A stretch of DNA of 64,000 nt from an uncultured Flavobacteriaceae bacterium (GCA_947500385.1 CANMSA010000007.1:116929-180928); one strand, 5' to 3'. Positions 15,228 to 40,565 are shown, counted from the stretch's first letter. Notes: generated from the letters alone by a model not told the origin. A program made the numbers and translations.

Positions 15228-15630
15228 TATTCAAAATTTGTGTCCGCCAGTCGATTGACGGACGAACGGGTTAAACTATTTTCATTTATTATTAGTTGGT
15301 TTAATTCTCTTTTAAAAAACCGCAACTACAAATCATCTATTCGATACGGAAATATAGGTTTTCGAAGTTCGTTACGATTTGTTTTTCGGTATGCTTCGGT
15401 CGGTGTTGCCAATACTATGTATTGGTTTTTCCGAGGGAAGGATGTTCAAAAAAGAAATTGCCTTTCACATCAAAAATTCAGTATTTCAAAGTAGTTTCAA
15501 GACTGTTGATTCATCCGAAGAAAAACCAACCGACCTATACCTACGGTTTTTTGCCAATTATACGGAGTGACCGTCCGGTGGTCTTTTTACAAGTGACCTT
15601 CTTGTTCAGAATGGATTTCAAGTCCATATC

Positions 15631-15707
15631 CCACATTATGAGTGTGGTGCTCTACCAACTGAGCTAAGAGATCTAAAAAAAGTGACCTCTGCAGGAGTCG
15701 AACCTGC
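15631..15707 (-). ncRNA. Circularly permuted tRNA(CAT)-like module (T arm > closed acceptor stem > D arm > anticodon arm)
   Basis: Minus strand reads GCAGG-TTCGACT-CCTGC AGAGGTC-A CTTTTTTTA GATCTCT TA GCTC-AGTTGGTA-GAGC A CCACA-CTCATAA-TGTGG. AGAGGTC/GATCTCT form 7 bp, with the 3' half preceding the 5' half. Confidence 0.6.
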
Positions 15708-15710
15708 GCG

Positions 15711-15806
15711 TACTTCTGTTGTTCTAACCAGGCTGAACTACATCCCCATTTTTTGTGAAATGGTTTGTGGGGAAGGAGGGATTCGAACCCCCGACTTACA
15801 GATGTA
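15711..15806 (-). ncRNA. Circularly permuted tRNA-like (YrlA-topology) module lacking an anticodon loop
   Basis: TAC-A-TCTGT AAGTC GGGGG-TTCGAAT-CCCTC CTTCCCC [21-nt loop] GGGGATG TA GTTC-AGCCTGGTTA-GAAC A ACAGA-A-GTA. The acceptor stem has 6/7 pairs and the closing stem is 5+3 bp. Confidence 0.6.
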
Positions 15807-15932
15807 AGACCATTTTTTGGAAAACAGCCGAAACCTTCAAGTCAAGTTGCATATGAAGACCTAATACTTCTCAGTAAAACTTCACACAATAGTGCTATAC
15901 AGAAACACCCAACAAGACCCGCTTGATACTTT

Positions 15933-16082
15933 ATTCCCGCGAAAGCGGGAATCTTTTACGATTTCCCTATGCGAAGCGTAGGCCTCGCCAGGGAATCTTA
16001 TCTTTCAATGAACTTTAATAAACCTCGCAACACACCTTGTTGCTGCGAGGCACCCCCGCAAACCACAGCTTATGTGGTTTGC
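15933..16082. repeat. Cluster of four GC-rich palindromic hairpins (REP-like)
   Basis: attcccgc-gaaa-gcgggaat; ttccct...agggaa; cctcgca...tgcgagg; gcaaaccaca...tgtggtttgc. Confidence 0.55.
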
Positions 16083-16092
16083 ACTATATATT

Positions 16093-16435
16093 AAAAAGCG
16101 TACTGGGAATACCCACGCTTATGGACAAGCTTTCGTAGGAGTACGGCAAAAGCCTTCCCTACTTTTCCACGCGCTTTCCGTTGCTTTGGAAATCGCGTAC
16201 TTGTCCGATGCCAGATACATTGTAACCGTTCGGCGACTTAGACTCGGCCTGCATAGCGGCTTTGGCCGCGCTTTGCAATTACAGGGGTTGGCTCCCCCAC
16301 CGTTCATAGGTGTCCCCTTGCGGGGCGACCTACTAGAATGTTCACCGCATGGTATCGGTTTGCGACCGCTACCACCCCATATCTTGCAATGGGTTTAGGC
16401 AACTACTAGCTGCTACAATGCCCGAAGTCTTTTGC
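16093..16435 (-). ncRNA. Candidate large structured ncRNA B (~340 nt)
   Basis: No credible ORF. Hairpins CCCC-GCAA-GGGG, CGGT-CGCAA-ACCG and GCGGC-CAAA-GCCGC; long-range 7-bp pairs CATTGTA/TACAATG and GGACAAG/CTTGTCC; terminator-like 3' hairpin plus U-run. Confidence 0.6.
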
Positions 16436-16496
16436 TTTTCTGATGCTCCCGAATGAGCTAAGAGACTAATGGGTTGCTCTTGGGAATCGAACCCAA

Positions 16497-16890
16497 ACAA
16501 AAGGTTGGCTTAGAAGAAGGGCTTCGAGAATGGCTCCGTAGATTTTGGCCTACAAAATACCAACCTTCTTCTTGAGTGCCTCCCGGCACACGGTATGTGA
16601 AGCTACCGAACAGTTTCCTATCAGGTACCTCTGGTACTGCACCAAGCTCCGCTGGGTCGGATGCCCCATACGTAACCTAGTACTACAACTTTTCCTCTTG
16701 GTGTCTCCACCGCAAGCCTACACAATGTATCGGCTATAAGTCCCGAGGTTGCCTCAGCGGTCGCCCCCGGCGTATCGTGACTTATGTTGGTTGCTTGCTT
16801 ACCTGCACTACCTTCCGAAGAAGGCAGTCTCCGCCTGCGATGCCCGCATGCAGATTTATCCTTGTTACCAAGTTTATCTGAGGACGATAA
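16497..16890 (-). ncRNA. Candidate large structured ncRNA A (~400 nt)
   Basis: No credible ORF. ACTGCCTTC-TTCG-GAAGGTAGT, GGTG-GAGA-CACC, GTGCC-GGGA-GGCAC, ATAAGTC/GACTTAT and AGAAGAAGG/CCTTCTTCT helices. Confidence 0.6.
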
Positions 16891-16939
16891 GCCGCCCCGT
16901 CATTTACAAGAAATGACGATTTTATTAGAAGAAGCCCAT

Positions 16940-17070
16940 ATGGACTTCTCTATTTCAATGAACGTTCCTCTGAGGCCGACGCGCCATCTGGCCCATTCGC
17001 AAAAAATGTCCACTGGACATTTTCTTAACGCGCTGGCCTACCACAGCTCTTCCCTTTGAGCTAAAGAGGC
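16940..17070 (-). pseudogene. tRNA 5'-half remnant interrupted by a palindromic element
   Basis: GCCTCTT TA GCTC-AAAGGGAA-GAGC followed by the palindrome AAAATGTCCAGTGGACATTTT; no matching 3' acceptor strand. Confidence 0.5.
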
Positions 17071-17172
17071 ATTTTGTTAAAGCCCCACAACACTCCTTTG
17101 TTGTTGTGAGGCACTCCCGCAAACCTCTTTTTGAAAGGCTAGTTTTTAATTACACAACAAAATTGAATCATA

Positions 17173-17195
17173 ACTACGCAATGATTATGCGTAGT
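17173..17195. promoter_or_regulatory. Probable WYL-regulator operator, perfect palindrome ACTACGCA-N7-TGCGTAGT
   Basis: Same arms as at 40597-40619; lies just upstream of a minus-strand CAATTTTG -7-like element. Confidence 0.75.
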
Positions 17196-17219
17196 AAAAA
17201 TGTTTTCAAGACAATTGCT

Positions 17220-17714
17220 TTATACCGCCATGTCCGCACAGGACGAGCTTGCAAACGCAAACGGTTTTGCCTTAAAAACAAATCCCATTCCAAGGATATA
17301 GCCCATCGCTTCTTTTAGTGCCACATTCGATTCAAATTTGGGATCCGTATTAATATCGGCGTGCACTTCAAGCTCGACATTGTATTTGTCCAAAATGTGG
17401 CAGATTGCATAAGCTGTCTCGACGGACATGGCCACTTCTTTTAACATACGCTCTTTGATACTGATGTTAGTAGTGCCCTTTTGATTTTTGATAAACATAA
17501 AACCACCTTTACCTTCCCTAAGTATGACCACTACAGTAGCATAGGCAATGTAAGACTTGTAGGCTTGTGAATCGGACCCTACACAAATCTTAATTCGATA
17601 TCCTGCCTTTTGCTCCCTGACAATGGCCTGCTCAACCAGAGTTGTGATGGGCTGTTCAAAAACCTTCCCGTTAAAATTTCTCCATTTATTCACTGCTATT
17701 TTCATAATTTTCAA
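17220..17714 (-). CDS. Ribonuclease H-like YkuK (DUF458) family protein
   Basis: CVGSDSQ, LKEV, LEVHADIN and KP.AFA.SSCAD motifs; start probably at 17705 or 17714. Confidence 0.85.
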   Translation of the reverse strand: MKIMKIAVNKWRNFNGKVFEQPITTLVEQAIVREQKAGYRIKICVGSDSQAYKSYIAYATVVVILREGKGGFMFIKNQKGTTNISIKERMLKEVAMSVETAYAICHILDKYNVELEVHADINTDPKFESNVALKEAMGYILGMGFVFKAKPFAFASSSCADMAV

Positions 17715-17728
17715 TCATTTTTTTGTTT

Positions 17729-17827
17729 TGGAACATACTGGGATGGAACCCTTCGACTTTGCCCAGGACAGGCCCGGTACCTTTGGTACTTAAAACCAAC
17801 GTGCACACCTACTACACTGCTGTTCCC
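17729..17827 (-). pseudogene. tRNA-Leu(TAA)-like, degenerate, with REP-like insert in T arm
   Basis: GGGAACA...TTGGT-TTTAAGT-ACCAA...ATGTTCC-A; insert ccttcgactttgcccaggacagg on the + strand. Confidence 0.5.
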
Positions 17828-17832
17828 TTTTG

Positions 17833-17905
17833 GGTGACTTGAGAGATTCGAACTCTGTTCTTCGCTTTCACACAGCGATGTTTTACCACATAAACTAAAG
17901 TCACC
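17833..17905 (-). tRNA. tRNA-His(GTG)
   Basis: 8-bp acceptor GGTGACTT/AAGTCACC (G-1), anticodon arm TCGCT-GTGTGAA-AGCGA, T loop TTCGAAT. Confidence 0.75.
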
Positions 17906-17911
17906 ATGTTG

Positions 17912-17982
17912 TTCATCCGATAGGATTCGAACCTATACGACAAGAATCAAAGTCTTGTGTGCTCCCATTACACAACGGATGA
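17912..17982 (-). tRNA. tRNA-Gln(TTG)
   Basis: TCATCCG/CGGATGA; CAAGA-CTTTGAT-TCTTG; ATAGG-TTCGAAT-CCTAT. Confidence 0.85.
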
Positions 17983-18053
17983 ATTTTGTAGGCCTAAAAG
18001 GATTTATTCATGTCACTTCTATTGTTTTTTAACCGTATTCATGAATGCTCCTC

Positions 18054-18167
18054 ATTTGAACCCATACCACAAGGGTCGAAATGCTTTTCAGCATTCACGA
18101 ACTCCTTAATTTAATTAAACAAGGGCGTGAGCTAAACCTTGTATGCTAACCATTACATCACGGGTCT
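18054..18167 (-). pseudogene. tRNA-Arg(TCG) with 52-nt anticodon-loop insert and missing 3' end
   Basis: AGACCCG TG ATGT-AATGGTTA-GCAT A CAAGG TTT[52 nt]TTTCGAC CCTTG TGGT ATGGG TTCAAAT, after which the sequence diverges. Confidence 0.6.
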
Positions 18168-18184
18168 ATTTGCAAGCTTAACAA

Positions 18185-18256
18185 TCCCGAGACTTCGGGA
18201 GAACTCTTGCCTCAAGGGTAGAAACCTTACGTGCTATCCATTACTCTTTAGACTAC
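18185..18256 (-). pseudogene. Degenerate tRNA-Arg(TCT) with T-loop palindrome
   Basis: AAGG-TTTCTAC-CCTT, then GAG-TTC-[TCCCGAAGTCTCGGGA]; the 3' acceptor is lost. Confidence 0.5.
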
Positions 18257-18259
18257 TTT

Positions 18260-18335
18260 TGGTACTCCACCTTGGATTCGAACCAAGACTAAACAGGGCT
18301 TAAACCCGATGCCTCTTCCGTTGGGCTAGTAGAGC
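18260..18335 (-). tRNA. tRNA-Leu(TAA), short variable loop, CCA encoded
   Basis: GCTCTAC/GTGGAGT-A-CCA; loop TTTAAGC; CTTGG-TTCGAAT-CCAAG. Confidence 0.7.
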
Positions 18336-18451
18336 AGTGATAAAAGGAGAGCGATTCCCTTCGACTGTGCTCAGGATACACTTCTCTTCTGTTTTACTTT
18401 TTACAAAATTTCAAAAGAACTTACCGAATACAGCTATTTCCATTTTTTTAG

Positions 18452-18525
18452 TACAGGGAGAGCGATTCGAACGCTCAAATACCTGATTCTAAATCAGGAG
18501 CCTTTGCCATTTTGGCCATCCCTGC
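18452..18525 (-). tRNA. tRNA-Leu(TAG), short variable loop
   Basis: GCAGGGA/TCCCTGT; CCTGA-TTTAGAA-TCAGG; GAGCG-TTCGAAT-CGCTC. Confidence 0.8.
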
Positions 18526-18531
18526 AAATCG

Positions 18532-18615
18532 TTGAGGCATTAGTCCCGACACTTCGGGAGAACCTAAGACTCCCGTGTTAAAAGGACGGTACTCTACCAA
18601 CTGAGTTATACCTCA
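18532..18615 (-). pseudogene. tRNA-Lys(TTT) with 16-nt palindrome in T loop
   Basis: TGAGGTA/TGCCTCA; loop CTTTTAA; TTAGG-TTC-[TCCCGAAGTGTCGGGA]-CTAA. Confidence 0.7.
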
Positions 18616-18620
18616 CTTTG

Positions 18621-18702
18621 TACTCTGTAAGGCCCCGACGCTTCGGGGGAACCCCTGTTTCCTGATAGAAAGTCAGGCGTACTACCATTATACGAACAGA
18701 GC
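18621..18702 (-). pseudogene. tRNA-Glu(TTC) with 16-nt palindrome in T loop
   Basis: GCTCTGT/ACAGAGT; CCTGA-CTTTCTA-TCAGG; AGGGG-TTC-[CCCCGAAGCGTCGGGG]-CCTT. Confidence 0.7.
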
Positions 18703-18716
18703 AAAAGTCTGAGAAG

Positions 18717-18867
18717 TCCCGCATTAGCGGGACGACCTCCCGCTTCCAAAGCGGGCAAACAACTCCCGACACTTAGGTCGGTATCCTGACTTTCGCGATG
18801 GCGAAACGTCAGGACCCGTACCTTCCCGATAGACAGTCGGGTGCTCTAGGCTTTGAACTACGGTACT
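18717..18867 (-). pseudogene. tRNA-Asp(GTC) 5' part followed by a stack of palindromic inserts
   Basis: GTTC-AAAGCCTA-GAGC, CCCGA-CTGTCTA-TCGGG, ACGGG-T, then a ~50-nt double hairpin and two more palindromes; no 3' acceptor. Confidence 0.6.
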
Positions 18868-18870
18868 TTG

Positions 18871-18954
18871 TGGAAGTAGTAGTCCCGACACTTCGGGAGA
18901 ACCCTTAATTCCACATAGAAAGTGTGGCGTCTTAGCCGTTTGACCAACGTAGCC
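18871..18954 (-). pseudogene. Chimeric tRNA-Glu(TTC) with T-loop palindrome
   Basis: GGCTACG...CCACA-CTTTCTA-TGTGG AAGGG-TTC-[TCCCGAAGTGTCGGGA]-CTAC TACTTCC-A; the 3' strand does not pair with the 5' acceptor. Confidence 0.6.
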
Positions 18955-18959
18955 TTTTG

Positions 18960-19031
18960 CGGTTCATACGAGAATCGAACTCGTATCTCCCGAGAGACAG
19001 TCGGGAAGGATTGCCATTACCCCAATGAACC
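18960..19031 (-). tRNA. tRNA-Asp(GTC)
   Basis: GGTTCAT/ATGAACC-G; CCCGA-CTGTCTC-TCGGG; ACGAG-TTCGATT-CTCGT. Confidence 0.85.
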
Positions 19032-19039
19032 CAATTTTG

Positions 19040-19111
19040 TACACCTACTAGGATTCGAACCCGGACTGAAAGAGTAGAAGTCTTTAGTGCTATCCCTTAC
19101 ACCATAGATGC
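19040..19111 (-). tRNA. tRNA-Arg(TCT)
   Basis: GCATCTA/TAGGTGT; AAAGA-CTTCTAC-TCTTT; T loop TTCGAAT with one T-stem mismatch. Confidence 0.8.
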
Positions 19112-19117
19112 TTCTTG

Positions 19118-19199
19118 TGGGAATGATAGGATTCGAACCTATTAAGCCAAAGCACCAGTTTTACAGACTGGCTCAACCCTCCATCGTTGACGCATTCCC
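19118..19199 (-). tRNA. tRNA-Tyr(GTA)
   Basis: GGGAATG/CATTCCC; CCAGT-CTGTAAA-ACTGG; longer variable region; ATAGG-TTCGAAT-CCTAT. Confidence 0.85.
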
Positions 19200-19206
19200 T
19201 TTTTTG

Positions 19207-19279
19207 AGACAAGGACAGGATTCGAACCTGTAAAAAACAGATTTGCAGTCTGCCACCTTAACCATTCAGCCACCTTGTC
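19207..19279 (-). tRNA. tRNA-Cys(GCA)
   Basis: GACAAGG/CCTTGTC with U73; GCAGA-CTGCAAA-TCTGT; ACAGG-TTCGAAT-CCTGT. Confidence 0.85.
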
Positions 19280-19283
19280 TATT

Positions 19284-19434
19284 TGGCGGAGTTGAGCCCC
19301 AAGGCTTCGAGGGAATACCGACGCTTGGGTCGGTATCCTGACTTTCACGAACGTGAAACGTCAGGACCTCCACCGCCTCTGGTGCGGCCTTGTTTAGCAG
19401 ACAAGTGTAACAAACCAGTATTTACCTACTCTCC
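19284..19434 (-). pseudogene. tRNA-Ser(GCT) with composite hairpin insert in T loop
   Basis: GGAGAGT...CTTGT-CTGCTAA-ACAAG, long variable arm GCCGC/GCGGT, GGAGG-T-[~70-nt insert]-...ACTCC-G-CCA. Confidence 0.65.
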
Positions 19435-19443
19435 ATTTTTTTG

Positions 19444-19517
19444 TCTGAGAGACAGGATTCGAACCTGCAACCTCCTGCATCCAAGGCAGGTAAACCAAAC
19501 CATCGTTATCCTCTCAG
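19444..19517 (-). tRNA. tRNA-Pro(TGG)
   Basis: CTGAGAG/CTCTCAG; CCTGC-CTTGGAT-GCAGG; GCAGG-TTCGAAT-CCTGT. Confidence 0.85.
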
Positions 19518-19522
19518 TGTTG

Positions 19523-19610
19523 CGGAAGGAGTGGGGGTCGAACCCACACGAGGCGTTAACTCCTAACTGTTTTCAAAACAGCGACCACCACCAAATTGGT
19601 TTGCCCTTCC
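19523..19610 (-). tRNA. tRNA-Ser(TGA)
   Basis: GGAAGGG/TCCTTCC-G; GCTGT-TTTGAAA-ACAGT; long variable arm; GTGGG-TTCGACC-CCCAC. Confidence 0.85.
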
Positions 19611-19616
19611 ATCTTG

Positions 19617-19691
19617 TTGACCCGATGGGAATCGAACCCATGACCTCGACCTTAAAAGGGCCTTGCTCTAACCTGGCTGAGCTACGAATCA
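19617..19691 (-). tRNA. tRNA-Lys(TTT)
   Basis: TGATTCG/CGGGTCA; GCTC-AGCCAGGTTA-GAGC; loop CTTTTAA; ATGGG-TTCGATT-CCCAT. Confidence 0.85.
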
Positions 19692-19740
19692 ATATTTAAA
19701 TTTTACCCAATCCCTCTCTGAGGGTTTCAATGAACATCAT

Positions 19741-19774
19741 AAAAAAAGCGCCTCCTGTTCTGGGAGACGCTTTT
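19741..19774 (-). terminator. Attenuator terminator 1 (upstream of tRNA array)
   Basis: GCGTCTCC-CAGAACA-GGAGGCGC followed by T7. Confidence 0.75.
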
Positions 19775-19796
19775 GTATTGCTAGGCTTTATTTGAG

Positions 19797-19979
19797 TTAA
19801 ACCCATATATACTTCTCCCGTTTATTATTGTACAGTCTTTCTCCATAAAAATATAAACTCGATTTCGGTGAGTTTATCGGTGTGAGTGTATGTACCATTT
19901 CTTTTCTCATTTTTTCAAATTCGTAAGAACCCCAACAACGTTGATTTTTTTTCCTATGTGTATGTCGTTGTGTTTTCAT
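19797..19979 (-). CDS. Putative 60-aa leader peptide (MKTQRHTHRKK...KREKYIWV)
   Basis: Starts about 20 nt after a CATCTTTG element (20000-20007), ends just before terminator 1, and contains GGGAGA complementary to the terminator 5' arm. Confidence 0.5.
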   Translation of the reverse strand: MKTQRHTHRKKNQRCWGSYEFEKMRKEMVHTLTPINSPKSSLYFYGERLYNNKREKYIWV

Positions 19980-20220
19980 TTGTCTTTTTTTCGACAGGGC
20001 AAAGATGAAAACGATTTTTAAATTATACAAGAAAAAAATTAATTTAATTTATTGATAATCAAATAGTTAAATTAAAATATAGACAATAGAATCCCTGTCC
20101 GTCATAGTGCGGATTTTGAACATTTATTACAACTGTCTGTCTACCAATTGTTTTCTGTTTCAACTATGTTATTTTATTTGTTTGCTACTTTTCACATTTT
20201 ACTTTAAAAAATTCCACAAA

Positions 20221-20250
20221 AAAAAGCGCCCAATTGTAATTGGACGCTTT
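20221..20250 (-). terminator. Attenuator terminator 2
   Basis: AAAGCGTCCAAT-TACA-ATTGGGCGCTTT followed by a U-run. Confidence 0.75.
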
Positions 20251-20283
20251 CATTTTATCGCTTAATCGAGTTATTTCATAGAA

Positions 20284-20394
20284 TCAATTCTTGGATAAAG
20301 TCACATAGCGTCCGTTTCGCTCACTATATTCTGAGCGAAAATCGCAGAGCCAAAGCTCTTGTATTTGGATGATATGTAACTTTCTCGGTTTCAT
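20284..20394 (-). CDS. Putative 36-aa leader peptide (MKPRKLHIIQIQELWLCDFRSEYSERNGRYVTLSKN)
   Basis: Directly after a CATCTTTG element; contains GGACGCT (20307-20313) complementary to the terminator-2 5' arm. Not in the ORF track. Confidence 0.5.
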   Translation of the reverse strand: MKPRKLHIIQIQELWLCDFRSEYSERNGRYVTLSKN

Positions 20395-20471
20395 TTGCTG
20401 TACAAAGATGTAATTTTTAATGGTTACAACACCATGATTTGTTCCTTTTTGTTTAAGAAAGAGCTTTTTAC

Positions 20472-20975
20472 TTAGGGGATATCCGATTCTAACTTCCTTT
20501 TGATTCTACTTTCCTCCGCCTCAATAAAGAATATCTCGTCGTTGACATAGGTATTCTTTTTTGCTTCGCTCAAGTGTTTCAGTGACAGCTTGTAATTTTC
20601 AGTTGTTTCCAAAGCAAACGCCGAAACACAATATAAACTTGCTTTATCAATACCCTTAATGGTAAAACCAAAATTGATCAGTTTAAAGGCTCTCTCGATT
20701 TCATCTGCCCAAATTAAGTAGGTAGCATACATAGGATATACCTCTAAATAGTCGGTGCTGATAGCGATTACCCTATCAAAACAGTCAAAAGCTTTGGCAT
20801 ATTGATTCAAGTTTTTTGCGTATACCTCTCCAAGCATACATAGTACCGCACAGTAATTTTCGTTGTAAGAAAGGGCGTAATTTAGCGATTCACACACGTC
20901 AATCCAATCAACGCAAGGGCCATTCATCGCTTCTTTGGCCTTTAAGTAATAGGTGTCTGCTATCGTTAGTTCCAT
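20472..20975 (-). CDS. TPR-like protein (paralog 2)
   Basis: LTIADTYYLKAK...LNYALSY; helical TPR-like pattern; close paralog of 21556-22086. Confidence 0.8.
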   Translation of the reverse strand: MELTIADTYYLKAKEAMNGPCVDWIDVCESLNYALSYNENYCAVLCMLGEVYAKNLNQYAKAFDCFDRVIAISTDYLEVYPMYATYLIWADEIERAFKLINFGFTIKGIDKASLYCVSAFALETTENYKLSLKHLSEAKKNTYVNDEIFFIEAEESRIKRKLESDIP

Positions 20976-21056
20976 AGTTGTTTTCTTAATTGGCTTTTAG
21001 TTTTGCCGTTTAGCCTTACATTTTTAATGCTCGTCTTGATCTTTAGAGTCGTTTCC
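20966..21056 (-). pseudogene. Degenerate duplicate of prfH 3' end
   Basis: Aligns with 22077-22168; ends QLRKQLWN* versus prfH QLRKQQWD* and overlaps the TPR start in the same way. Confidence 0.7.
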
Positions 21057-21210
21057 TCACTAAACCGGAATAAGATGTAGGCTTTGCAAGCGCAATTGAT
21101 TTCCCAACAGTTGAGCAAAGCTACTGTTGAATGGGAGTCATCTCGATTTCTTTGTATTGATGTCATGAAAGACTATCGATCACTATTATTTGAACACTGG
21201 TCAGATTTGT

Positions 21211-21447
21211 TTAATCAAAAGAGGCTTGCAACTTTTTAAGTCTATTCAACTCGCCAATGTTAGGGGGCAATTTGGTAAGCTTGTTTCCTCTCAGGTCTAG
21301 ATTCTTTAATGATTGAATTTCTTTGATTTTTGGCATCAACTGAATAAGATCTTCATTTGTAAGTTCCAAACTTGTAAGAGCCAACGTATTGCTCCATTGC
21401 TCTTTTGCTGTCCTTATCAATCGTTCTGCCTCGGTAATGTTTCCCAT
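21211..21447 (-). pseudogene. Truncated leucine-rich-repeat protein fragment
   Basis: LKNLDLRGNKLTKLPPNIGELNRLKKL, stopping after about two repeats (78 aa). Confidence 0.65.
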
Positions 21448-21555
21448 ATATCTACTTGTTTGTTAGTAAGTATGGGAAAGGGGTAGTTTCCCCCAACGAA
21501 AAGTAGAAACAATTAGGTTTGGGAGCTTCAGTGCCCTGCTGTGCGGGCATCAACC

Positions 21556-22086
21556 TTATTTTCGAAGTTTCTTTTTTTGTCTTTTGGAAGCAGGCTTCTT
21601 ATCCAATTTCAACTTTTTTTTGATTCGCTTTTCCTCTCCTTCGATAAAAGAAAAGTAGTCTTCGTTAAAAGAGTACTTTTTGGACTTCTTCAGATATTTC
21701 AGAGCAATTTGATAGTGCTCTTGGGTTTCCGCGGCATAGGCGGAAAGCCACAACAGACTGCCTTTTGATACGCCCTTTAGGGTCAATGCAAAAGCGATTA
21801 GATTTGTCGCTCTTTCAATTTCATCTGCCCAGATCAAGTATAAGGTGTACATGGGATAAACGTCCAAGTAATAGTTGTCTAAGGCGATTACTTTATCAAA
21901 ACATTCGAAAGCTTTCTCATATTGATGTAAGTTTCTGGCATACACGCTACCAAGAAGGCAAAGTGCCGCACAATGATTTTCGTCATAGGACAGGGCATAG
22001 TTTAACGATTCGCATACTTCGTCCCAGTCATAGCCGCGCGCGGCCTTGGCCTTTAAGTAGTAGGTGTCTGCTATGGTTAGTCCCAT
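21556..22086 (-). CDS. TPR-like protein (paralog 1), coupled to prfH
   Basis: MGLTIADTYYLKAK; TPR-like helices; Lys-rich tail; overlaps the prfH stop. Confidence 0.8.
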   Translation of the reverse strand: MGLTIADTYYLKAKAARGYDWDEVCESLNYALSYDENHCAALCLLGSVYARNLHQYEKAFECFDKVIALDNYYLDVYPMYTLYLIWADEIERATNLIAFALTLKGVSKGSLLWLSAYAAETQEHYQIALKYLKKSKKYSFNEDYFSFIEGEEKRIKKKLKLDKKPASKRQKKKLRK

Positions 22087-22769
22087 TGTTGTTTTCTTAG
22101 TTGGTTTTTTAGTTGTTGCCGTTTTGGCCTGTATTTTTTAAGTGTTTTTTGAGGTTTAAAGTCGGTACCTTTAAAAATACGAACAGGATTTCCACGCTGT
22201 AAATCCAAATGATTTTCCCATTGATCGGTCATCCTGCTTTTTAATTGCGCTAGGTTGGCTTCCTTCACCTTTTCCTTCAACCGAGCGATAGCCAATTTTT
22301 TATTTTGATGTTGAGAACGACTGTCCATCACTACTACCTGAACGCCCGTTGGGGTATGAATGGCGCGAACAGCGGAGTTTACTTTGTTCACATGCTGTCC
22401 TCCTGGACCCTTGCTCCGCATGGTCTGAAATGAGATTTCTTTTTCAGTTACCTCCATGGTCTGCGTCATTTTTAATTCGAAAGCGCCGATGAACCAGTTT
22501 TTCCGTTTATGATGTTTTCGAAATCTCGAGGTGCCGATCCATTGAATGGTACCCAGCCAAGTTGCTAAAAAAGTAGCTAGGTCCTTCCCTTTTAAGCAAA
22601 TTGTAACCGATTGTACAGTGCCGTTTTGGGTGCCTTTTTCCTGATGTAGGATGCTATGCTGAATACCTGCTTTTTTGGTTTCCTGCAAGAATAGTTTAAG
22701 TACTTGGGCAACCACCCAACCACATTCCGAGGGCCCTCTACCAGCTGTTATCTGTAGTATTTTTTCCAT
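22077..22769 (-). CDS. prfH: Peptide chain release factor H
   Basis: LQITAGRGPSEC, WIGTS, RKNWFIG and GPGGQHVNKVNSAVRA..PTG (GGQ); adjacent to rtcB. Confidence 0.93.
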   Translation of the reverse strand: MEKILQITAGRGPSECGWVVAQVLKLFLQETKKAGIQHSILHQEKGTQNGTVQSVTICLKGKDLATFLATWLGTIQWIGTSRFRKHHKRKNWFIGAFELKMTQTMEVTEKEISFQTMRSKGPGGQHVNKVNSAVRAIHTPTGVQVVVMDSRSQHQNKKLAIARLKEKVKEANLAQLKSRMTDQWENHLDLQRGNPVRIFKGTDFKPQKTLKKYRPKRQQLKNQLRKQQWD

Positions 22770-22859
22770 GGTTTTTTTTAGTATTTAGTAGTAGGTACTG
22801 AGTACAAAGTATTTTATCATACCTCCTTTGTCCTTCATACTCATATCTCACTACACTTT

Positions 22860-24251
22860 TCACTTATTCATTCGTACTATTTTAGGCGTAAAGGTTCCGA
22901 GTACCTCTACCAACTCTTGTTGATTCGCCATGACCTTCTCAATGTTTTTGTACGCCATGGGCGCTTCGTCGATACCTCCACCAATAAGGGTGACCTCGTG
23001 TTTTTGCAACTGCTTCTTGATCTCACTTTTGGTAAAAGTCTCTTTGCACTTTCGTCTTGAAAAAAGACGCCCGGCGCCATGGGAGGCAGAATTTAAACTT
23101 GTTGTATTTCCCAAACCCCTTACGACATAACCCGGCGCGGTCATGGAGCCGGGAATAATTCCCAGTTCACCTTTTGCCGCCGGAGTCGCTCCTTTTCGAT
23201 GCACGATACACTCCTTGCCGTTCAACTCCTGTTTCCAGGCCAAGTTGTGATGGTTCGCTATTTTGAACAATGGCTTTACACCTAAAAGTTTGGCCAATCT
23301 TGTGTGAATATTATCATGACAAGCGGTTGCATAATCTCCCGCTAAGTTCATGGCCAACCAATATTCCTGTCCGTCATGGGTATCCAAATCGAGCCAAGCA
23401 AGATGCTGTACATGTTTGGGCAGTGGGCATTGCTTTGTTGCCAAATAAGTATAGTGTTTCGCTATTTTGGCGCCCAGACCTCTAGAGCCACTATGCGACA
23501 AAATCCCAAGGTATTCCCCTGGTTTTAAACCCCATTCGTTCTGAAGGTCGGTAATGGAAACACTACCGAATTCCACAAAGTGATTGCCTCCACCGGAAGT
23601 ACCCAATTGTTTGTAGGCGGTATCCTTTAGACTTTTAAGTCGAGGGATGTTTTTAAATTCGTCCCGTTCAAAGATTTCATGATCATGCTTTATGGAATGC
23701 GTCTCGCGCATACCGAACTTGGTATGTTCGGAAAGCATGTTTGCCAATTGATGCTTCTTTCCTTTAAGGTAGGAAACCGCAATTGGATAAACGGTCAAAC
23801 ACATACTACAGCCAATATCGACTCCGACCCCATAGGGGATGACCGCATTATGGGTCGCCAACACCCCTCCGATCGGTAGGCCATACCCGCTATGTGCATC
23901 GGGCATCAATGCCCCCGCCACAGAAACCGGTAGTTTTAAAGCATCGTACAATTGATACTTCGCTTGCTGTTCAATTTCATTTTCACCATATATCTGAAAA
24001 GGGGCACGCACTTTTTTGAGTTCCTGTTTTTTAACGATGACCGGGTCTAACAAACTTTCGGCAATCTTTCCCCATACCCCATCACCTTGATAGTCTTCTG
24101 GGTGCAACAATACTTTTTTAGCTACGGTCAATACCTGCTCCTTTTTCATTCGCTTGTGGTATCGGTTGATCTGCCCCAAGGTAATGTTGATACTGTTGTT
24201 CTTTGGAAAACCTAATTTGATCAGGTCCTTTCCGCTTAATTTCTTTCCCAT
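22860..24251 (-). CDS. rtcB: RNA ligase RtcB (PrfH-linked type)
   Basis: PDAHSGYGLPIGG, GVDIGC, GTSGGGNHF, HSGSRG, HHN, HRKGAT, PGSM, SHGAGR and DEAP motifs. Confidence 0.95.
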   Translation of the reverse strand: MGKKLSGKDLIKLGFPKNNSINITLGQINRYHKRMKKEQVLTVAKKVLLHPEDYQGDGVWGKIAESLLDPVIVKKQELKKVRAPFQIYGENEIEQQAKYQLYDALKLPVSVAGALMPDAHSGYGLPIGGVLATHNAVIPYGVGVDIGCSMCLTVYPIAVSYLKGKKHQLANMLSEHTKFGMRETHSIKHDHEIFERDEFKNIPRLKSLKDTAYKQLGTSGGGNHFVEFGSVSITDLQNEWGLKPGEYLGILSHSGSRGLGAKIAKHYTYLATKQCPLPKHVQHLAWLDLDTHDGQEYWLAMNLAGDYATACHDNIHTRLAKLLGVKPLFKIANHHNLAWKQELNGKECIVHRKGATPAAKGELGIIPGSMTAPGYVVRGLGNTTSLNSASHGAGRLFSRRKCKETFTKSEIKKQLQKHEVTLIGGGIDEAPMAYKNIEKVMANQQELVEVLGTFTPKIVRMNK

Positions 24252-24357
24252 GATACAATGAGATATTAGATGTTAGACCGAAGACCTAAGAGGTCTCCGG
24301 AGATACTATTTTTCTTGAATGTTGTTTCGAAAAGAGCTGCTCTAAAAACTGAGGCAT

Positions 24358-24389
24358 AAAAAAGTCCGAAAGCGTACGGCTTCGGACTT
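24358..24389 (-). terminator. Attenuator terminator 3 (upstream of rtcB)
   Basis: AAGTCCGAAG-CCGTACGC-TTTCGGACTT followed by a U-run. Confidence 0.75.
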
Positions 24390-24411
24390 GCTATCATAAT
24401 CTAGTACAGAT

Positions 24412-24495
24412 TTATGTATTTGAGAAGTCCTGAAGCGACACGAAAGAGGCACCTGGTACCTTTTGTGCAATCTGATGTCTGTTTATGAAAGTCAT
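24412..24495 (-). CDS. Putative 27-aa rtcB leader peptide (MTFINRHQIAQKVPGASFVSLQDFSNT)
   Basis: Downstream of a TAGATTTG promoter element (~24534-24541); contains CTTC-A-GGACTT complementary to the terminator-3 5' arm. Confidence 0.55.
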   Translation of the reverse strand: MTFINRHQIAQKVPGASFVSLQDFSNT

Positions 24496-24740
24496 ACTAC
24501 TTCAGTTAAAAACGTGTGTGTTTAATTTCGATGCAAATCTAAAATGCTTTTTTGGATTTACCAAATAAAAATCAATTTAATTAATTGATTATCAATTAAT
24601 TATGATTAAAATTAGACATGAGAATTCCGGTCCGTTTTAGAACGGATATCAGCATATTTAACGAACCTGCTGTTTATCAAATGATTAGCTTTCAATTAGC
24701 ATTCTTTGAGAATTTGGATGACTACCAAAAAAATTACATA

Positions 24741-24768
24741 AAAAAAGCGCCCAATTTCTTGGACGCTC
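24741..24768 (-). terminator. Attenuator terminator 4
   Basis: AGCGTCCAA-GAAA-TTGGGCGCT followed by a U-run; near-identical to terminator 2. Confidence 0.75.
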
Positions 24769-24795
24769 TAGTCTTGTATCGTTTTCTAATAGTTT

Positions 24796-24861
24796 TTACC
24801 CATCAATATGATGCAATCCCAGCTTTTCAGCGCCCGGTATGTGAGTAAAATAATTTAGCAT
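24796..24861 (-). CDS. Putative 21-aa leader peptide (MLNYFTHIPGAEKLGLHHIDG)
   Basis: Contains GGGCGCT (24829-24835) complementary to the terminator-4 5' arm. Confidence 0.45.
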   Translation of the reverse strand: MLNYFTHIPGAEKLGLHHIDG

Positions 24862-24917
24862 GTATGGTTTTTTATAAGGTACTTTTAAAATTTAACTATT
24901 GAAATGTGGTATGGCAC

Positions 24918-25208
24918 CTATAATATTTCTATTACCTTACCATACACATTTTTAGTCCATCCGTTAATTCTTCCATGGTTGTTACCAATTAACAAGCCAC
25001 GTTTGTTATTCTTTCCTTTTACAAGGTGTGTAAATACATTTCCACGTACTTTACAATAAACAATGTCACCTACCTCACAATCTTCCCCAGCGATGGGCGC
25101 AATACGCACCGGCTGTTTAGATTTGAGTAAGGGCAACATAGAATTCCCGGGTTCTTTTGAAATGATGGTTTTTCCATCATTGAGTTTTTGAATTTTCCAA
25201 TTCATCAT
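24918..25208 (-). CDS. Small S24/S26 peptidase-fold-like protein
   Basis: GNSMLP followed by VGDIVYCK...FTHLV...GNN resembles LexA/signal-peptidase boxes; no transmembrane anchor. Confidence 0.55.
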   Translation of the reverse strand: MMNWKIQKLNDGKTIISKEPGNSMLPLLKSKQPVRIAPIAGEDCEVGDIVYCKVRGNVFTHLVKGKNNKRGLLIGNNHGRINGWTKNVYGKVIEIL

Positions 25209-25393
25209 TTCTAATTTTAAAAGTTATGTACAGCGATAGTACTGTACATGTCCCTCAAAATTTTCAAAAAAACAATTTTCAATGAACTGTTGCAAAGATG
25301 CGGATTATATAGCAACCTTCAAAAAAATAGGGTCTTCATGGTCGATTTCTTAGACAAAGCTCCTGCTTTTTAATTCAATTATTGCCAGTTACG

Positions 25394-25424
25394 ACGAATT
25401 CTAGTTTATCTCCAACGAATTCTA
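25394..25424 (+). promoter_or_regulatory. Putative LytTR box (ACGAATTCTA direct repeat, 21-bp period)
   Basis: ACGAATTCTA-N11-ACGAATTCTA upstream of 25489; the same motif occurs at 27954-27984. Confidence 0.65.
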
Positions 25425-25488
25425 AAAGCACTACATACTCCCAGGAGGTCACCGTTACATTTGACAAAAATAACAATGAACTAAAACC

Positions 25489-27648
25489 ATGATTATGAAA
25501 CTACTATATACGTTTTTTCTATTTTGTACCGCTGCATTGAGCTATGCTCAGGAAGGTGACAGTCCGTATTTATTGGTAACTACCCAAGACGCTGTAATTC
25601 CTTTAAAGGCCTCGAAGACCAATGTACAAATCTCCGGTGCCATTGCGCATGTTCAAATTACCCAAGTATATCAAAACCTGGGAACTTCGGCGATTGAGGC
25701 CAAGTATGTGTTTCCGCTTTCTATCCATGCGGCCGTACATAAAATGCAAATGACCATAGGAGATCGTATCGTGAATGCCAAGATATTTGAAAAGCAAACA
25801 GCACAAAAAGTATACGAGACCGCCTTGAGCGAAGGGAAACGTGCTGCTAAATTGGATCAAGATCGGCCGAATGTATTTCAAATGAATGTGGGCAATATTA
25901 TGCCGCGAGATGAAATTACCATCGCAATCTTCTACACTGAAATGCTGGTGCCGGTAAACGGACAGTACCAATTTGTAGCTCCTTCGGTCGTTGGGCCGCG
26001 CTTTACCGGAGAACGTTCTGGGAATACAGATAGTTTTAACATGCCCTATACCGCCAAGGGCATAGCGGACACTTTTGATTTTGACATGACGGTTTTCATA
26101 AACGCCGGTATGCTAATTCAAAGTATTACCAGCACAAGTCATATCGTAGCGTTGAGGTATCCCGATGCTAAGACTGCCGAGGTGTTTTTATCCAAAAACA
26201 ATAAAAACCCGGCTAACAGGGATTTCATCCTCAACTATAACCTTCGGGGAAACAAAATACAATCGGGATTGCTCTTGTATGAGGACAAAGATGAACACTT
26301 CTTCACCTATCAAATGGAACCGACAAAAAATGTTGTTTTGGAGGATATTCCAAGCAGGGAGTACCTATTTATTGTAGATGTCTCAGGTTCCATGAACGGA
26401 TATCCATTGGAAGTATCCAAAGAACTCATGCGAAACTTGCTTTGTAACCTACGGCCTACAGATACGTTTAACGTGCAGTTGTTTGCTTCAAGTGCTACGG
26501 TTTTCAGTACGACGCCCGTAGAAACGAATGAGCAGAATATCGAAGCGGCCATTCGCTTTCTTTCTGAAGGTCAGGGAGGCGGGGGTACCCAATTGCTGAA
26601 TGCCTTACAGGAGGCATACAAGTTGCCACGAAAAGACCCCAGCAATGCCCGTTCTATGGTTGTCATTACCGATGGTTATGTAAGTGTAGAAAAGGAGGCT
26701 TTTGAGCTGATCAAAAACAACTTAGATCAGGCCAATGTATTCACTTTTGGTATTGGCTCTAGTGTAAATCGATACCTGATCGAAGGCATGGCCAAAGTGG
26801 CCAATAGTGAATCTTTTATTGCAACTTCGATGGGAGAGGCGAATGGGGTCGCCAAGAAATTTGCAACATACATTTCAACACCCTTGTTGACACAGGTTAA
26901 AATTGAGTCACAAGGTTTTGAGATGTATGACATGGCACCAAGCAGTATCCCCGACGTTTTTGCGGCAAGACCTGTGGTGGTGCATGGCAAATATCGTGGT
27001 AAAGCCCACGGTAAAATTATTATTACCGGGTATCAGGGGGCTAAAAAGTTCAGACAAGAATTTAAGGTTGCACATGGCCACCTTAGCAAAGCGAACAAGG
27101 CATTGCCTTATTTATGGGCAAGACAACGAATAGCCGAATTGGGCGACTATCATAAAATTTTCAATGAGGATGTAAGGGATCGTGTGATTGCACTGGGCCT
27201 GAAATACAATTTGGCCACCGACTATACCTCGTTTGTTGCCGTTGATGAAGTAGTCGCAAACAAAAATGGTTCAATAAGCACGGTGAAACAACCCTTGCCG
27301 ATGCCTCGTAATGTAAACAATTTAGCGGTCGGGGCAGCGGGCGAAGTGAGGGAGCGCACAACATACAAACCATCCTTTAACATTGCATTTAATGAAAACC
27401 TTGACAAAACCACCAAAAGAAAAATCACGATGGAATTCAAAACAATCTATACAAAATTGGTAAACGACTATTTGGAGAAGTACAAAGGCCTACGGATAAA
27501 ATTCGATAAAAATGGCCAAATCGTCTGTGTCGAAAAAATGGAAAAAGGTCAGTGGGTTTTAGATAGCGGATTAATGGATGAATTTGATGCATTTTCAACG
27601 AGAAGAATGCGCTTGGACAAGGAAGTGATTTTGACATTGAAAAAATAG
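25489..27648 (+). CDS. Secreted VIT + vWA domain protein
   Basis: Signal peptide; VIT (VQISGAIAHV.ITQ.YQN...EAKYVFPL); vWA MIDAS DVSGSM, GGGT and ITDG. Confidence 0.9.
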   Translation: MIMKLLYTFFLFCTAALSYAQEGDSPYLLVTTQDAVIPLKASKTNVQISGAIAHVQITQVYQNLGTSAIEAKYVFPLSIHAAVHKMQMTIGDRIVNAKIFEKQTAQKVYETALSEGKRAAKLDQDRPNVFQMNVGNIMPRDEITIAIFYTEMLVPVNGQYQFVAPSVVGPRFTGERSGNTDSFNMPYTAKGIADTFDFDMTVFINAGMLIQSITSTSHIVALRYPDAKTAEVFLSKNNKNPANRDFILNYNLRGNKIQSGLLLYEDKDEHFFTYQMEPTKNVVLEDIPSREYLFIVDVSGSMNGYPLEVSKELMRNLLCNLRPTDTFNVQLFASSATVFSTTPVETNEQNIEAAIRFLSEGQGGGGTQLLNALQEAYKLPRKDPSNARSMVVITDGYVSVEKEAFELIKNNLDQANVFTFGIGSSVNRYLIEGMAKVANSESFIATSMGEANGVAKKFATYISTPLLTQVKIESQGFEMYDMAPSSIPDVFAARPVVVHGKYRGKAHGKIIITGYQGAKKFRQEFKVAHGHLSKANKALPYLWARQRIAELGDYHKIFNEDVRDRVIALGLKYNLATDYTSFVAVDEVVANKNGSISTVKQPLPMPRNVNNLAVGAAGEVRERTTYKPSFNIAFNENLDKTTKRKITMEFKTIYTKLVNDYLEKYKGLRIKFDKNGQIVCVEKMEKGQWVLDSGLMDEFDAFSTRRMRLDKEVILTLKK

Positions 27649-37227: not shown

Positions 37228-38706
<1,479 letters not shown>

Positions 38707-38735
38707 TCATGATTCCGGTACAAACTTCCTACTTA

Positions 38736-38758
38736 TTCGCGCAATGATTTTGCGTAGT
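38736..38758. promoter_or_regulatory. Probable WYL operator, imperfect (TTCGCGCA-N7-TGCGTAGT)
   Basis: One arm is identical to the 17173 and 40597 sites; followed on the minus strand by GAAGTTTG, upstream of the second rtcB. Confidence 0.65.
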
Positions 38759-38763
38759 TGGGT

Positions 38764-39828: not shown

Positions 39829-40565
39829 TTTGTTATCGTATTGTATAAAAAGCTATTCATTCGTTCACTATCGGGCCTTCCTCCTAAAAGGGATTTGGCG
39901 TACTTTTCATTCACCTCTAGAACAGAGTTTATTAGTTCTATTACCATCTCATTTCTAGCGTGAAGATAGCATTCATTTTTTTTTGATTTAACAGCCATCA
40001 AGTTTCTTATTTCGTCTGCCTCATCCCTTTTTACAAGAGATAACATCTTGCTAAGAACGACAGGTGGCATCGTATTGTGTTCAAGTATCCACTTGCCTGC
40101 TAAAGCGGTTCGCAGTGCGTAAAAGAGACTCTTTAGCTTTACCATATCATCGGTCAGTGTCGCTCTATGTTTTTTGCCCATACTTAAGTAATGATACATA
40201 GCGGCCACAGGAGAAAAACACTCTTTGGCGATTGCTCTAAGCTCTTCTATGGAGTGGCTTTCTCCCATGTATGTGATAGGCGAGAACAAATGTTCTATTG
40301 CTGATACGTTCGACTTTTTGAGTAGGCGCAATTTTTTTCGAAGTTCCCAACCGACCGCGTCAAAATCACCATCCATAAAGTTTATTGTATCCTTTTTTTC
40401 CGAGATCGATAGATACCACTCCAGAGGCGGAGTATATAGAAACCGTACATCGTAATCACTGTCCGGCGATGCGAACCCCCAAGCCCTACTACCAGATTCG
40501 CAAGCGAACAATATATCAACATTTTTATCGGTAGCAAGTGCCTTTAGCTTTGTGTGTATCATCAT
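39825..40565 (-). CDS. Pol-beta-superfamily nucleotidyltransferase (YcgL-like)
   Basis: ESGSRAWGFASPDSDYDVRF, GWELRK and K..FYALR motifs. Confidence 0.9.
   Translation of the reverse strand: MMIHTKLKALATDKNVDILFACESGSRAWGFASPDSDYDVRFLYTPPLEWYLSISEKKDTINFMDGDFDAVGWELRKKLRLLKKSNVSAIEHLFSPITYMGESHSIEELRAIAKECFSPVAAMYHYLSMGKKHRATLTDDMVKLKSLFYALRTALAGKWILEHNTMPPVVLSKMLSLVKRDEADEIRNLMAVKSKKNECYLHARNEMVIELINSVLEVNEKYAKSLLGGRPDSERMNSFLYNTITK

Follow-up and report, generated by a model that had tools for sequence, protein, structure and literature searches.

Four cassettes on the minus strand of a 64,000-nucleotide stretch of DNA from an uncultured Flavobacteriaceae bacterium (GCA_947500385.1 CANMSA010000007.1:116929-180928, hereafter the window) precede, two by two, the operon of the RNA-repair ligase gene rtcB and an array of tRNA genes. 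Each cassette contains a small open reading frame (ORF), an antiterminator segment lying within it and an intrinsic terminator. The four cassettes exist and are not the product of chance. They probably belong to one Flavobacteriaceae family of ribosome-mediated, or leader-peptide, transcription attenuators, in which the proposed switch responds to lagging translation of the leader. The anatomy of the leaders, that is their ORFs, their helices and the covariation of these helices, is well supported by the comparison of related sequences.

An earlier note, made from the sequence of the window alone, had described four short minus-strand ORFs, each followed by a terminator whose 5′ arm is complementary to part of the ORF, and we recovered all of these elements. 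The ORFs are located at 24796-24861 (ORF 1, 21 amino acids, aa), 24412-24495 (ORF 2, 27 aa), 20284-20394 (ORF 3, 36 aa) and 19797-19979 (ORF 4, 60 aa). Behind these ORFs, at 24769-24744 (T1), 24389-24362 (T2), 20251-20222 (T3) and 19774-19744 (T4), lie the strongest terminator-like hairpins found in the region, all four with a T run. The complementary segments are GGGCGCT (24835-24829) and AGCGTCC (24767-24761) in cassette 1, GCTTCAGGACTT (24436-24425) and AAGTCCGAAG (24389-24380) in cassette 2, GGACGCT (20313-20307) and AGCGTCC (20248-20242) in cassette 3, and GGGAGA (19819-19814) and TCTCCC (19767-19762) in cassette 4. When the upstream stretches were shuffled, an exact complement of the terminator arm arose in 0.3-3% of the trials, depending on the cassette; cassette 1 uses a G.U variant. 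RNAs ending just past the 5′ arm of the terminator fold with the antiterminator:arm pairing in 4/4 cassettes, and the full-length leader RNAs all fold to the terminator.

Some details of this first description had to be amended. The complementary segment had been placed in the 3′ part of each ORF, which is not true of cassette 1, where it covers codons 9-11 of 21. The layout in two tandem pairs, one before rtcB (24251) and one before the first tRNA (19691), is correct, but a conserved promoter splits each pair. Also, the leader peptides are indeed devoid of a run of any amino acid, the feature that defines the trp/his class of attenuators, but they cannot be said to share no sequence: codon 7 is His in all four ORFs of the window (ORF 4 being counted from an internal ATG at 19910), and the ORF 3 peptide has homologs among other leaders (see below).

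The evidence comes mainly from a set of 80 related Flavobacteriaceae loci, fetched with RtcB as the query and including Maribacter, Zobellia, Cellulophaga, Aquimarina, Tenacibaculum, Polaribacter, Winogradskyella and Flavobacterium. The covariation counts given below were thus obtained on related genomes and are not numbers of phylogenetically independent events. Across this set the complementarity is conserved, with compensatory changes in the antiterminator and in the terminator, in agreement with the check that the earlier note had proposed. The structural core of the attenuation logic that it had put forward, i.e. an intrinsic terminator preceded by a leader ORF that contains an antiterminator, is therefore strongly upheld by the comparative data, whereas the geometry of T1 and T3 does not fit simple masking by a ribosome.

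The leader of rtcB (cassette 2) is the most informative. Downstream of a predicted start at ~24529, it comprises region 1 (CTGAAGT, C[T/C]GAAGT in relatives; 24499-24505) just 5′ of the start codon, and then ORF 2 (MTFINRHQIAQKVPGASFVSLQDFSNT). Within this ORF lie hairpin HP1 (GGTAC-CAG-GTGCC; 24448-24460), a candidate pause hairpin for RNA polymerase, and region 2 (24425-24436), the antiterminator, which ends 10 nucleotides (nt) before the stop codon, a position also known from classical attenuators, and whose 5′ half pairs with region 1. A ribosome near the stop codon would therefore mask region 2. The small hairpin HP2 (24398-24412) overlaps the last two bases of the stop codon and would cap the antiterminator, but it found weak support (mean z -1.1 across 60 leaders). 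T2, made of regions 3 and 4 (AAGTCCGAAG-loop-CTTTCGGACTT with a T run; 24356-24389) and conserved in ~65 loci, stands between the predicted start and rtcB.

An ORF of 27-28 codons with an invariant ATG and a stop codon 17-33 nt before T2 was found in ~65 of the 70 loci having T2. When the leaders were anchored on the antiterminator, frame 0 was open in 53/58 distinct sequences, versus 6/58 and 25/58 for the other frames and 1-4/58 for those of the reverse strand. There is thus a conserved open short ORF whose translation would lead the ribosome over the antiterminator strand, and in both T2 and T4 the antiterminator shares a strand with the terminator, the two structures being mutually exclusive and displaying compensatory changes in either case. 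In cassette 2 the antiterminator and terminator states are isoenergetic (-35.6 and -35.4 kcal/mol).

The helices were evaluated on an alignment of 53 distinct rtcB leaders, with 500 shuffles and slid controls. Helix 2:3, the antiterminator, was paired in 92% of the cells, with double changes at 4 pairs. Helix 3:4, the terminator, was paired in 99%, with compensatory changes, and helix 1:2 in 92%, with 23 double-change cells. In HP1 all 6 pairs showed compensatory changes, synonymous sites included, and a T-rich run follows this hairpin in most leaders (TCTTTC in the window), an arrangement that resembles the pause hairpins of classical attenuators. For each of these four helices the percentage of paired cells or the covariation score was reached by 0/500 shuffles, but the counts of pairs and of further pair types did not exceed the shuffles for every helix. 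Pairing ranged over 92-99% for all four, HP1 included, and dropped to 30-60% in the slid controls. Segment and arm have matched variants: Flavobacterium shows GGCTT/AAGCC, Tenacibaculum GATTTT/AAAATC and GATTAC/GTAATC, and the Polaribacter-like loci ACTTC/GAAGT. The Flavobacterium variant converts the arm from GTCC to GCCC and the antiterminator from GAC to GGC, so that the peptide LRDF is changed into LRGF. This exchange of Asp for Gly occurs exactly where the terminator arm changes, which argues that the RNA pairing, and not the peptide, is under selection at those codons. The N-terminal halves of the rtcB leader peptides are highly variable apart from codon 7.

The leader of the tRNA array (cassette 4) is built in a similar way. 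T4 (AAAAGCGTCTCC-loop-GGAGGCGCTTTT with a T run; 19741-19774) separates the predicted start (~19995) from the first tRNA gene (19691), and the antiterminator segment GGGAGA occupies 19814-19819. ORF 4, with its 60 aa, is longer than usual for the relatives; starting from the internal ATG at 19910 gives a 37-aa form, which matches their 40-43-aa leaders. In 29 loci we found such an ORF, usually of 40-43 codons, ending 21-30 nt before a strong terminator. The arms of these terminators differ among clades, in at least six variants (..TCTCC(C), ..GACGCCC, ..GGCGCC, ..CACCTTCC, ..GCGCCTT, ..CACCTCC), and each clade has a matching segment, GGAGA(T), GGGYGTCT, GCGTCT, GGAAGGT or GGGAGA, placed 6-31 nt upstream of the end of the ORF. 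Each leader was paired with its own arm and with the arms of the other clades, a comparison that is not circular. The cognate duplexes had a mean of -7.9 kcal/mol versus -5.2 kcal/mol for the non-cognate ones, and the own arm was better in 27/29 leaders (Wilcoxon p 3e-6, the leaders not being phylogenetically independent).

The upstream cassettes are of the T1 type. ORF 1 (T1a type; MLNYFTHIPGAEKLGLHHIDG) lies in the 3′ region of the upstream gene for a 96-aa protein, its antiterminator segment at 24829-24835, and T1 itself (AGAGCGTCCAAGAAATTGGGCGCT with a T run; 24737-24769) is conserved in sequence across genera. ORF 3 (T1b type) contains internal hairpins at 20359-20346 and 20338-20317, with a -7-like box CATCTTTG nearby (20410-20403); its segment (20307-20313) is conserved in T1b cassettes, and T3 (AGCGTCCAATTACAATTGGGCGCT with a T run; 20218-20251) is a paralog of T1. 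In ~50 related loci an ORF of 19-21 codons stands at the same distance from the T1 copies upstream of rtcB, and an ORF of 35-41 codons precedes the T1 copies upstream of arrays. In most T1a cassettes the segment GG[A/G]CG[C/T] stands 61-71 nt ahead of T1, although the reading frame of GGACGC differs by genus, giving Asp-Ala in some and Gly-Arg in others. A helix between the start-codon and stop-codon regions of T1 cassettes also covaries (CCTATG/CATAGG versus TCTATG/CATAGA). Finally, the T1b peptide (..LHII..LW..FRS..GRYV; LHII..LW..FRS in ORF 3) is homologous to the leader peptides of tRNA arrays in other genera. The ORFs of T1 and T3, their conserved segments and this homology lead us to place all four cassettes in one family.

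T1 is found at the end of the unit of the conserved 96-aa gene and T3 at the end of that of a TPR-like gene. As both are upstream of a separate conserved promoter, they cannot gate the transcripts of that promoter but only read-through from the preceding unit. Also, their segment lies 21-31 nt before the stop codon, so that simple ribosome masking does not explain the upstream cassettes. This geometry does not yield a direction for the T1/T3 response.

The regions of T1/T2 and of T3/T4 align in the same order and represent one duplicated module: a T1-type terminator (AGCGTCCAA..TTGGGCGC with a T run), a spacer of ~130 nt, a conserved block, a promoter, a leader ORF and a second terminator. Both terminator types, the block and the promoter recur before rtcB and again before tRNA arrays in relatives. 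The promoters are of the sigma-A type with canonical geometry, and their starts are predicted. The consensus in Bacteroidetes consists of a -33 TTTG, a -7 TANNTTTG and a G at -5 (PMC6847099). The rtcB-leader promoter (24529-24565; TTTG at 24565-24562, TAGATTTG at 24541-24534) matches the -7 box at 8/8 positions and is near-invariant in 17 genomes. The tRNA-array promoter (within 19995-20151; TTG at 20030-20028, CATCTTTG at 20007-20000) matches at 7/8 positions, and the G at -33 of the -33 element is present in both.

The block before the rtcB promoter (24585-24672) contains CAGCA..TGCTG (24672-24650), ATCCG-n8-CGGAC (24647-24630) and the palindrome TTGATAATCAA (24595-24585), which are candidate operators. 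Its copy before the array promoter (20052-20151) contains ACAATTG..CAGTTGT (20151-20129), ATCCG-n8-CGGAC (20114-20097) and TTGATTATCAA (20062-20052). This block is more conserved than the leader ORFs, and the two copies share the palindrome TTGATnATCAA. The array copy includes ACAATTGnGAGACAGnCnATTGT, and ATCCG-n8-CGGACAGG shows compensatory as well as strand-specific T.G changes. A search for a structured RNA between T1 and the promoter with RNAalifold gave only a 4-bp hairpin (-3.4 kcal), and we therefore treat the block as operator-like DNA with one unexplained inverted repeat.

We propose the following mechanism for the rtcB leader. Transcription would start at ~24529 from the sigma-A-type promoter, and HP1 with its T-rich stretch would pause the polymerase until a ribosome arrives. 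A ribosome in step with the polymerase would sit on region 2 as region 3 emerges, allowing 3:4 to form and transcription to terminate. An initiated ribosome that lags or stalls within the first ~15 codons, owing to a damaged decoding center, a missing tRNA or an inhibitor, would leave region 2 free; 2:3 could then form and the polymerase would read into rtcB, prfH and the TPR-like gene. The earlier note had proposed that failure to translate the leader frees the antiterminator. This is too simple for rtcB, since the antiterminator also has a conserved pairing partner just ahead of the start codon: in a leader free of ribosomes, helix 1:2 may favor termination, and the productive state would be better described as initiated but slow. 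The leader of ORF 4 and T4 would work in the same way to release the spare-tRNA array, while T1 and T3 would insulate the regulated promoters and might let upstream transcription pass under some translational state. General ribosome or tRNA damage, as suggested in the earlier note, would be the inducing signal.

Several points weigh against this proposal. The minimum-free-energy fold of the truncated RNA forms 2:3 although 1:2 is possible, which makes the outcome in a ribosome-free leader uncertain. In T1a cassettes, and also in tRNA-array leaders of the Aquimarina type, the antiterminator lies 21-31 nt before the stop codon, i.e. outside the footprint of a terminating ribosome, so that masking in its simple form does not account for either group. 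The conserved promoter-upstream block implies additional control by a transcription factor, which could even be the main regulator. Lastly, we infer translation of the ORFs, translation-dependent read-through, the pause at HP1 and the physiological signal from sequence, and the biological direction of the switch from precedent.

Other explanations were considered. That the ORFs are chance frames, the hairpins ordinary terminators and the complementarity a coincidence is extremely improbable: the shortness of the segments (6-12 nt) and the abundance of small ORFs in AT-rich DNA speak for it, but the conservation, covariation and frame bias observed across 50-60 distinct leaders contradict this reading. 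It is possible, though somewhat unlikely, that only T2 and T4 are attenuators, and that T1 and T3, each with its small upstream ORF, mainly terminate or insulate the preceding units in the ordinary way and exert no regulated gating. Their positions after the 96-aa gene and the TPR gene, the conserved -33/-7 promoter and operator-like sites that separate T1 from T2 and T3 from T4, and the distance of their antiterminators from the stop codon, too great for ribosome masking, would all agree with such a role. Yet GGACGC is held at a fixed distance from T1 in ~43/51 T1a cassettes despite the differing frames, the T1-type segment is always accompanied by an ORF of 19-21 or 35-41 codons, and truncated T1 and T3 RNAs fold with the segment:arm pairing. 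The covarying helix between the start and stop regions of T1 and the homology of T1b peptides to tRNA-leader peptides also argue for a regulated cassette.

The leaders might also sense one specific drug through the nascent peptide, as do ermCL, catA86L and rli80: one particular antibiotic would arrest translation at a defined codon of the leader, and the genes induced would counter that drug and not general damage. Known drug-sensing leaders stall at codons 5-10, and codon 7 is His in 88/113 T1a, T1b and T4 leaders and Asn, Tyr, His or Asp in 45/60 rtcB leaders (in the window, for example, 24477-24475 and 20376-20374). Moreover, a hairpin begins ~36 nt into the ORF and some T1a peptides carry RLR-like motifs. 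We nevertheless find this quite unlikely, as the N-terminal halves of the rtcB leaders vary so widely elsewhere, and as the target genes serve RNA repair and tRNA supply and not protection from a drug. A tetranucleotide ACAT at nt 16-21 of the ORF, kept in different frames, could explain the codon-7 pattern as well as a pure amino-acid signal would. A trans-acting factor, such as an RNA-binding protein, a damaged or uncharged tRNA, or the 96-aa or TPR-like protein, could instead set the choice of terminator, the ORF serving only to couple or clear the leader. The conserved NAG triloop on the covarying stem of HP1 and the conserved accessory genes of the locus whose function is unknown would suit such a factor. 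However, the open frame, the fixed ORF length and the position of the stop codon relative to region 2 are conserved across genera, which a purely protein-driven switch does not require, and the leaders match no known RNA family. We regard this possibility as very unlikely.

The genes proposed to be under control of the rtcB leader (21556-24251, minus strand) are rtcB (24251-22860), prfH (22769-22077) and the TPR-like gene (22086-21556). RtcB was identified by its Pfam match (5e-83), and the prfH product by an RF-1 match and by TIGR03072, release_prfH (239 bits versus a cut-off of 167). The trio is kept in nearly all of the 80 loci. Adjacent, co-directional genes for PrfH and an RtcB-family ligase, as found here and in the 80 loci, characterize the RtcB2-PrfH repair module. 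PrfH and RtcB2 act on ribosomes that colicin E3 has cut, which they rescue and repair (PMC9304027, PMC9223846). In Flavobacteriia, PrfH-CT also rescues intact stalled ribosomes; this subfamily has an extra basic C-terminal tail and includes a "larger PrfH" of up to 250 aa (PMC12829566). The PrfH of the window has 230 aa, and its TIGR03072 match ends at residue 204 and is followed by KPQKTLKKYRPKRQQLKNQLRKQQWD.

The tRNA array (17832-19691, minus strand) has 11 tRNAs within 1.9 kb (Lys, Ser, Pro, Cys, Tyr, Arg, Asp, Leu, Leu, Gln, His), and up to 19 are present in relatives. Long tRNA arrays (L-arrays) are characterized by many co-directional tRNA genes in tandem whose specificities duplicate those of housekeeping genes (PMC8421152). 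A co-directional array lies 3-10 kb downstream of rtcB-prfH in ~35/80 loci. Its gaps in the window contain repeat families (18172-18930 and 19318-19368, minus strand), CCCGACACTTCGGGAGAACC among them, and two stretches with sub-threshold tRNA matches (17729-17826 and 18639-18702) may represent tRNA-like genes that are degenerate or unusual.

The neighborhood shows further features. The 96-aa protein upstream of cassette 1 (24918-25208, minus strand) is 76-95% identical across genera, a conservation that exceeds that of RtcB in most loci. It had no match in Pfam, NCBIfam or PDB sequences; its GNSM motif we take to be reminiscent of S24 peptidases. Many relatives have an extra gene of 220-277 aa (motifs RHGWFKEIVIT and YITHSKRIDP) between the T2 leader and rtcB, overlapping the start of the latter (e.g. 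5142-5975 in locus L001 and 2624-3310 in L048); the window does not have this gene. The 3′ end of prfH and the start of the TPR gene are partially duplicated in tandem (20928-20998 versus 22039-22109, 87% identical; 20966-21447, minus strand), which yields a second TPR-like gene (20472-20975) and a 66-aa ORF whose C-terminus resembles the PrfH tail, with an LRR fragment (21211-21447) between the two copies. In the region 37228-40565 (minus strand), a second, divergent RtcB paralog (28% identity) shares an operon with a 354-aa protein that belongs to no known family and with a 246-aa protein that has a weak nucleotidyltransferase match. This paralog lies 2-4 kb upstream of rtcB-prfH in relatives, whereas an inserted 12-kb block of plus-strand genes separates the two in the window.

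Two RNA elements were detected downstream of the array. A full-model match to GOLLD RNA (RF02032) at 16098-16572 (minus strand) reached 124 bits, below the gathering threshold of 150 (E ~3e-33), and we treat it as a divergent relative and not as a curated member. From the tRNA array upstream, on the same strand, it is separated by 1.3 kb that contain no strong minus-strand terminator, and homologous copies follow the arrays of loci L001, L027, L031, L032 and L043. An element of ~220 nt (15603-15838, minus strand) gave weak tRNA and YrlA (Y-RNA-like) matches. At least 25 of the related loci have a homolog (nhmmer E as low as 1e-38), located after the tRNA array or, where there is no array, directly after the TPR gene. 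Both GOLLD-like and Y-RNA-like RNAs are placed beside an RNA-repair operon in culturable bacteria.

One may speculate that the whole locus is a chromosomal "translation-damage island" with an expression tied directly to how well ribosomes perform, whose paralogous leader sensors (His or NAY at codon 7, hairpin at +36) detect ribosomes or tRNAs crippled by ribotoxins or anticodon nucleases, and then release in order RtcB2-PrfH, for repair of 16S rRNA and for rescue, the replacement tRNAs, and the GOLLD and Y-RNA-like RNAs. We consider this extension unlikely, but if true, it would give a physiological context to GOLLD and to long tRNA arrays in cultivable marine flavobacteria.

Searches in databases added little. 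An Rfam scan of 16000-27000 by E-value returned no known family over the leaders, and a BSR0602 match on T4 (25 bits) was rejected as spurious. A phage origin was also discarded: in 2.9 million viral contigs, patterns of the T1 and T2 types hardly occur, and the rare matches have neither rtcB nor prfH. Among public reads no run contains more than 29% of the words of the window, and the contigs were uninformative. Low-depth metatranscriptome contigs for a Zobellia relative cover the leaders, two of them beginning ~10-20 nt after the predicted start of the tRNA leader and crossing T4, but they are too weak to call start or end sites. No reads mapped from the raw RNA runs from 2026. In the literature searched on PrfH and RtcB, on the regulation of tRNA arrays and on flavobacterial attenuators, we found no description of these leader elements, nor of the regulation of rtcB2-prfH in Flavobacteriia.

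If the proposed mechanism is correct, the lagging ribosome, i.e. the damaged machine itself, would be the signal that switches on its own repair, a model that can be tested. As far as the searchable literature shows, the array leader would be the first case of a tRNA operon under leader-peptide attenuation. It would also offer an independent route to the idea, raised for cyanobacteria, that long tRNA arrays constitute a reserve for translational stress. The family further illustrates how RNA pairing can dictate residues of a leader peptide (Asp/Gly).

Leader-peptide attenuation is itself a known mechanism. The new features would be its targets (rtcB2-prfH and a tRNA array), the absence of regulatory codon runs, the location of region 1 at the initiation site and the organization of four paralogous cassettes as terminator-promoter-leader pairs. 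Like the amino-acid attenuators of enterobacteria (trp, his, leu, pheA), the cassettes combine a short ORF, a pause-type hairpin, competing 1:2, 2:3 and 3:4 helices and an intrinsic terminator, and masking of region 2 by a ribosome near the stop codon is proposed here as well. They differ in that no regulatory codon run is present, that region 1 is just 5′ of the start codon instead of inside the ORF, and that four paralogs in tandem pairs serve RNA repair, ribosome rescue and tRNAs. Leader-peptide attenuation has also been inferred for amino-acid operons in Flavobacterium psychrophilum (PMC9723704), and yxjB of Bacillus subtilis has an attenuator that responds to translation inhibitors (PMC6851288). 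The nearest functional analog is rli80-hflXr of Listeria, in which the ribosome rescue factor HflXr is under ribosome-dependent attenuation (PMC6310831). In both systems a small leader ORF and alternative structures would control a gene for the rescue of stalled ribosomes, stalling being the signal. However, the present cassettes belong to another phylum, have an unrelated leader sequence and peptide, are not shown to depend on a drug and would also control a tRNA operon. The upstream ORF toiL of Escherichia coli topAI-yjhQ has likewise been proposed as a general sensor of translation stress (PMC12121999), but it acts through Rho-dependent termination and mRNA structure, whereas an intrinsic terminator with a covarying antiterminator is found here.

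Translational stress co-induces a tRNA array and rtcB in Anabaena, where the response runs through the TrcR repressor (PMC8421152, PMC10272220). The likeness of this trn L-array/rtcB regulon to our locus is that a long tRNA array and rtcB are co-regulated there, and that both units share a duplicated promoter-upstream module here; the difference is that Anabaena uses a DNA-binding repressor at direct repeats, while the Flavobacteriaceae units have leader-peptide attenuators and a physical linkage to prfH. In E. coli, rtcBA is controlled by RtcR and sigma-54, and Salmonella has an rsr-yrlBA-rtcBA operon. As proposed for the present locus, damage to the translation apparatus induces an RNA-repair ligase in these systems, and a Y-RNA-like RNA is part of the locus; the ~220-nt element of the window, with its weak YrlA-like match, recalls the Salmonella arrangement. 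Neither RtcR nor a sigma-54 promoter turned up in the examined parts of the window, and regulation would here be exerted by cis-acting RNA.

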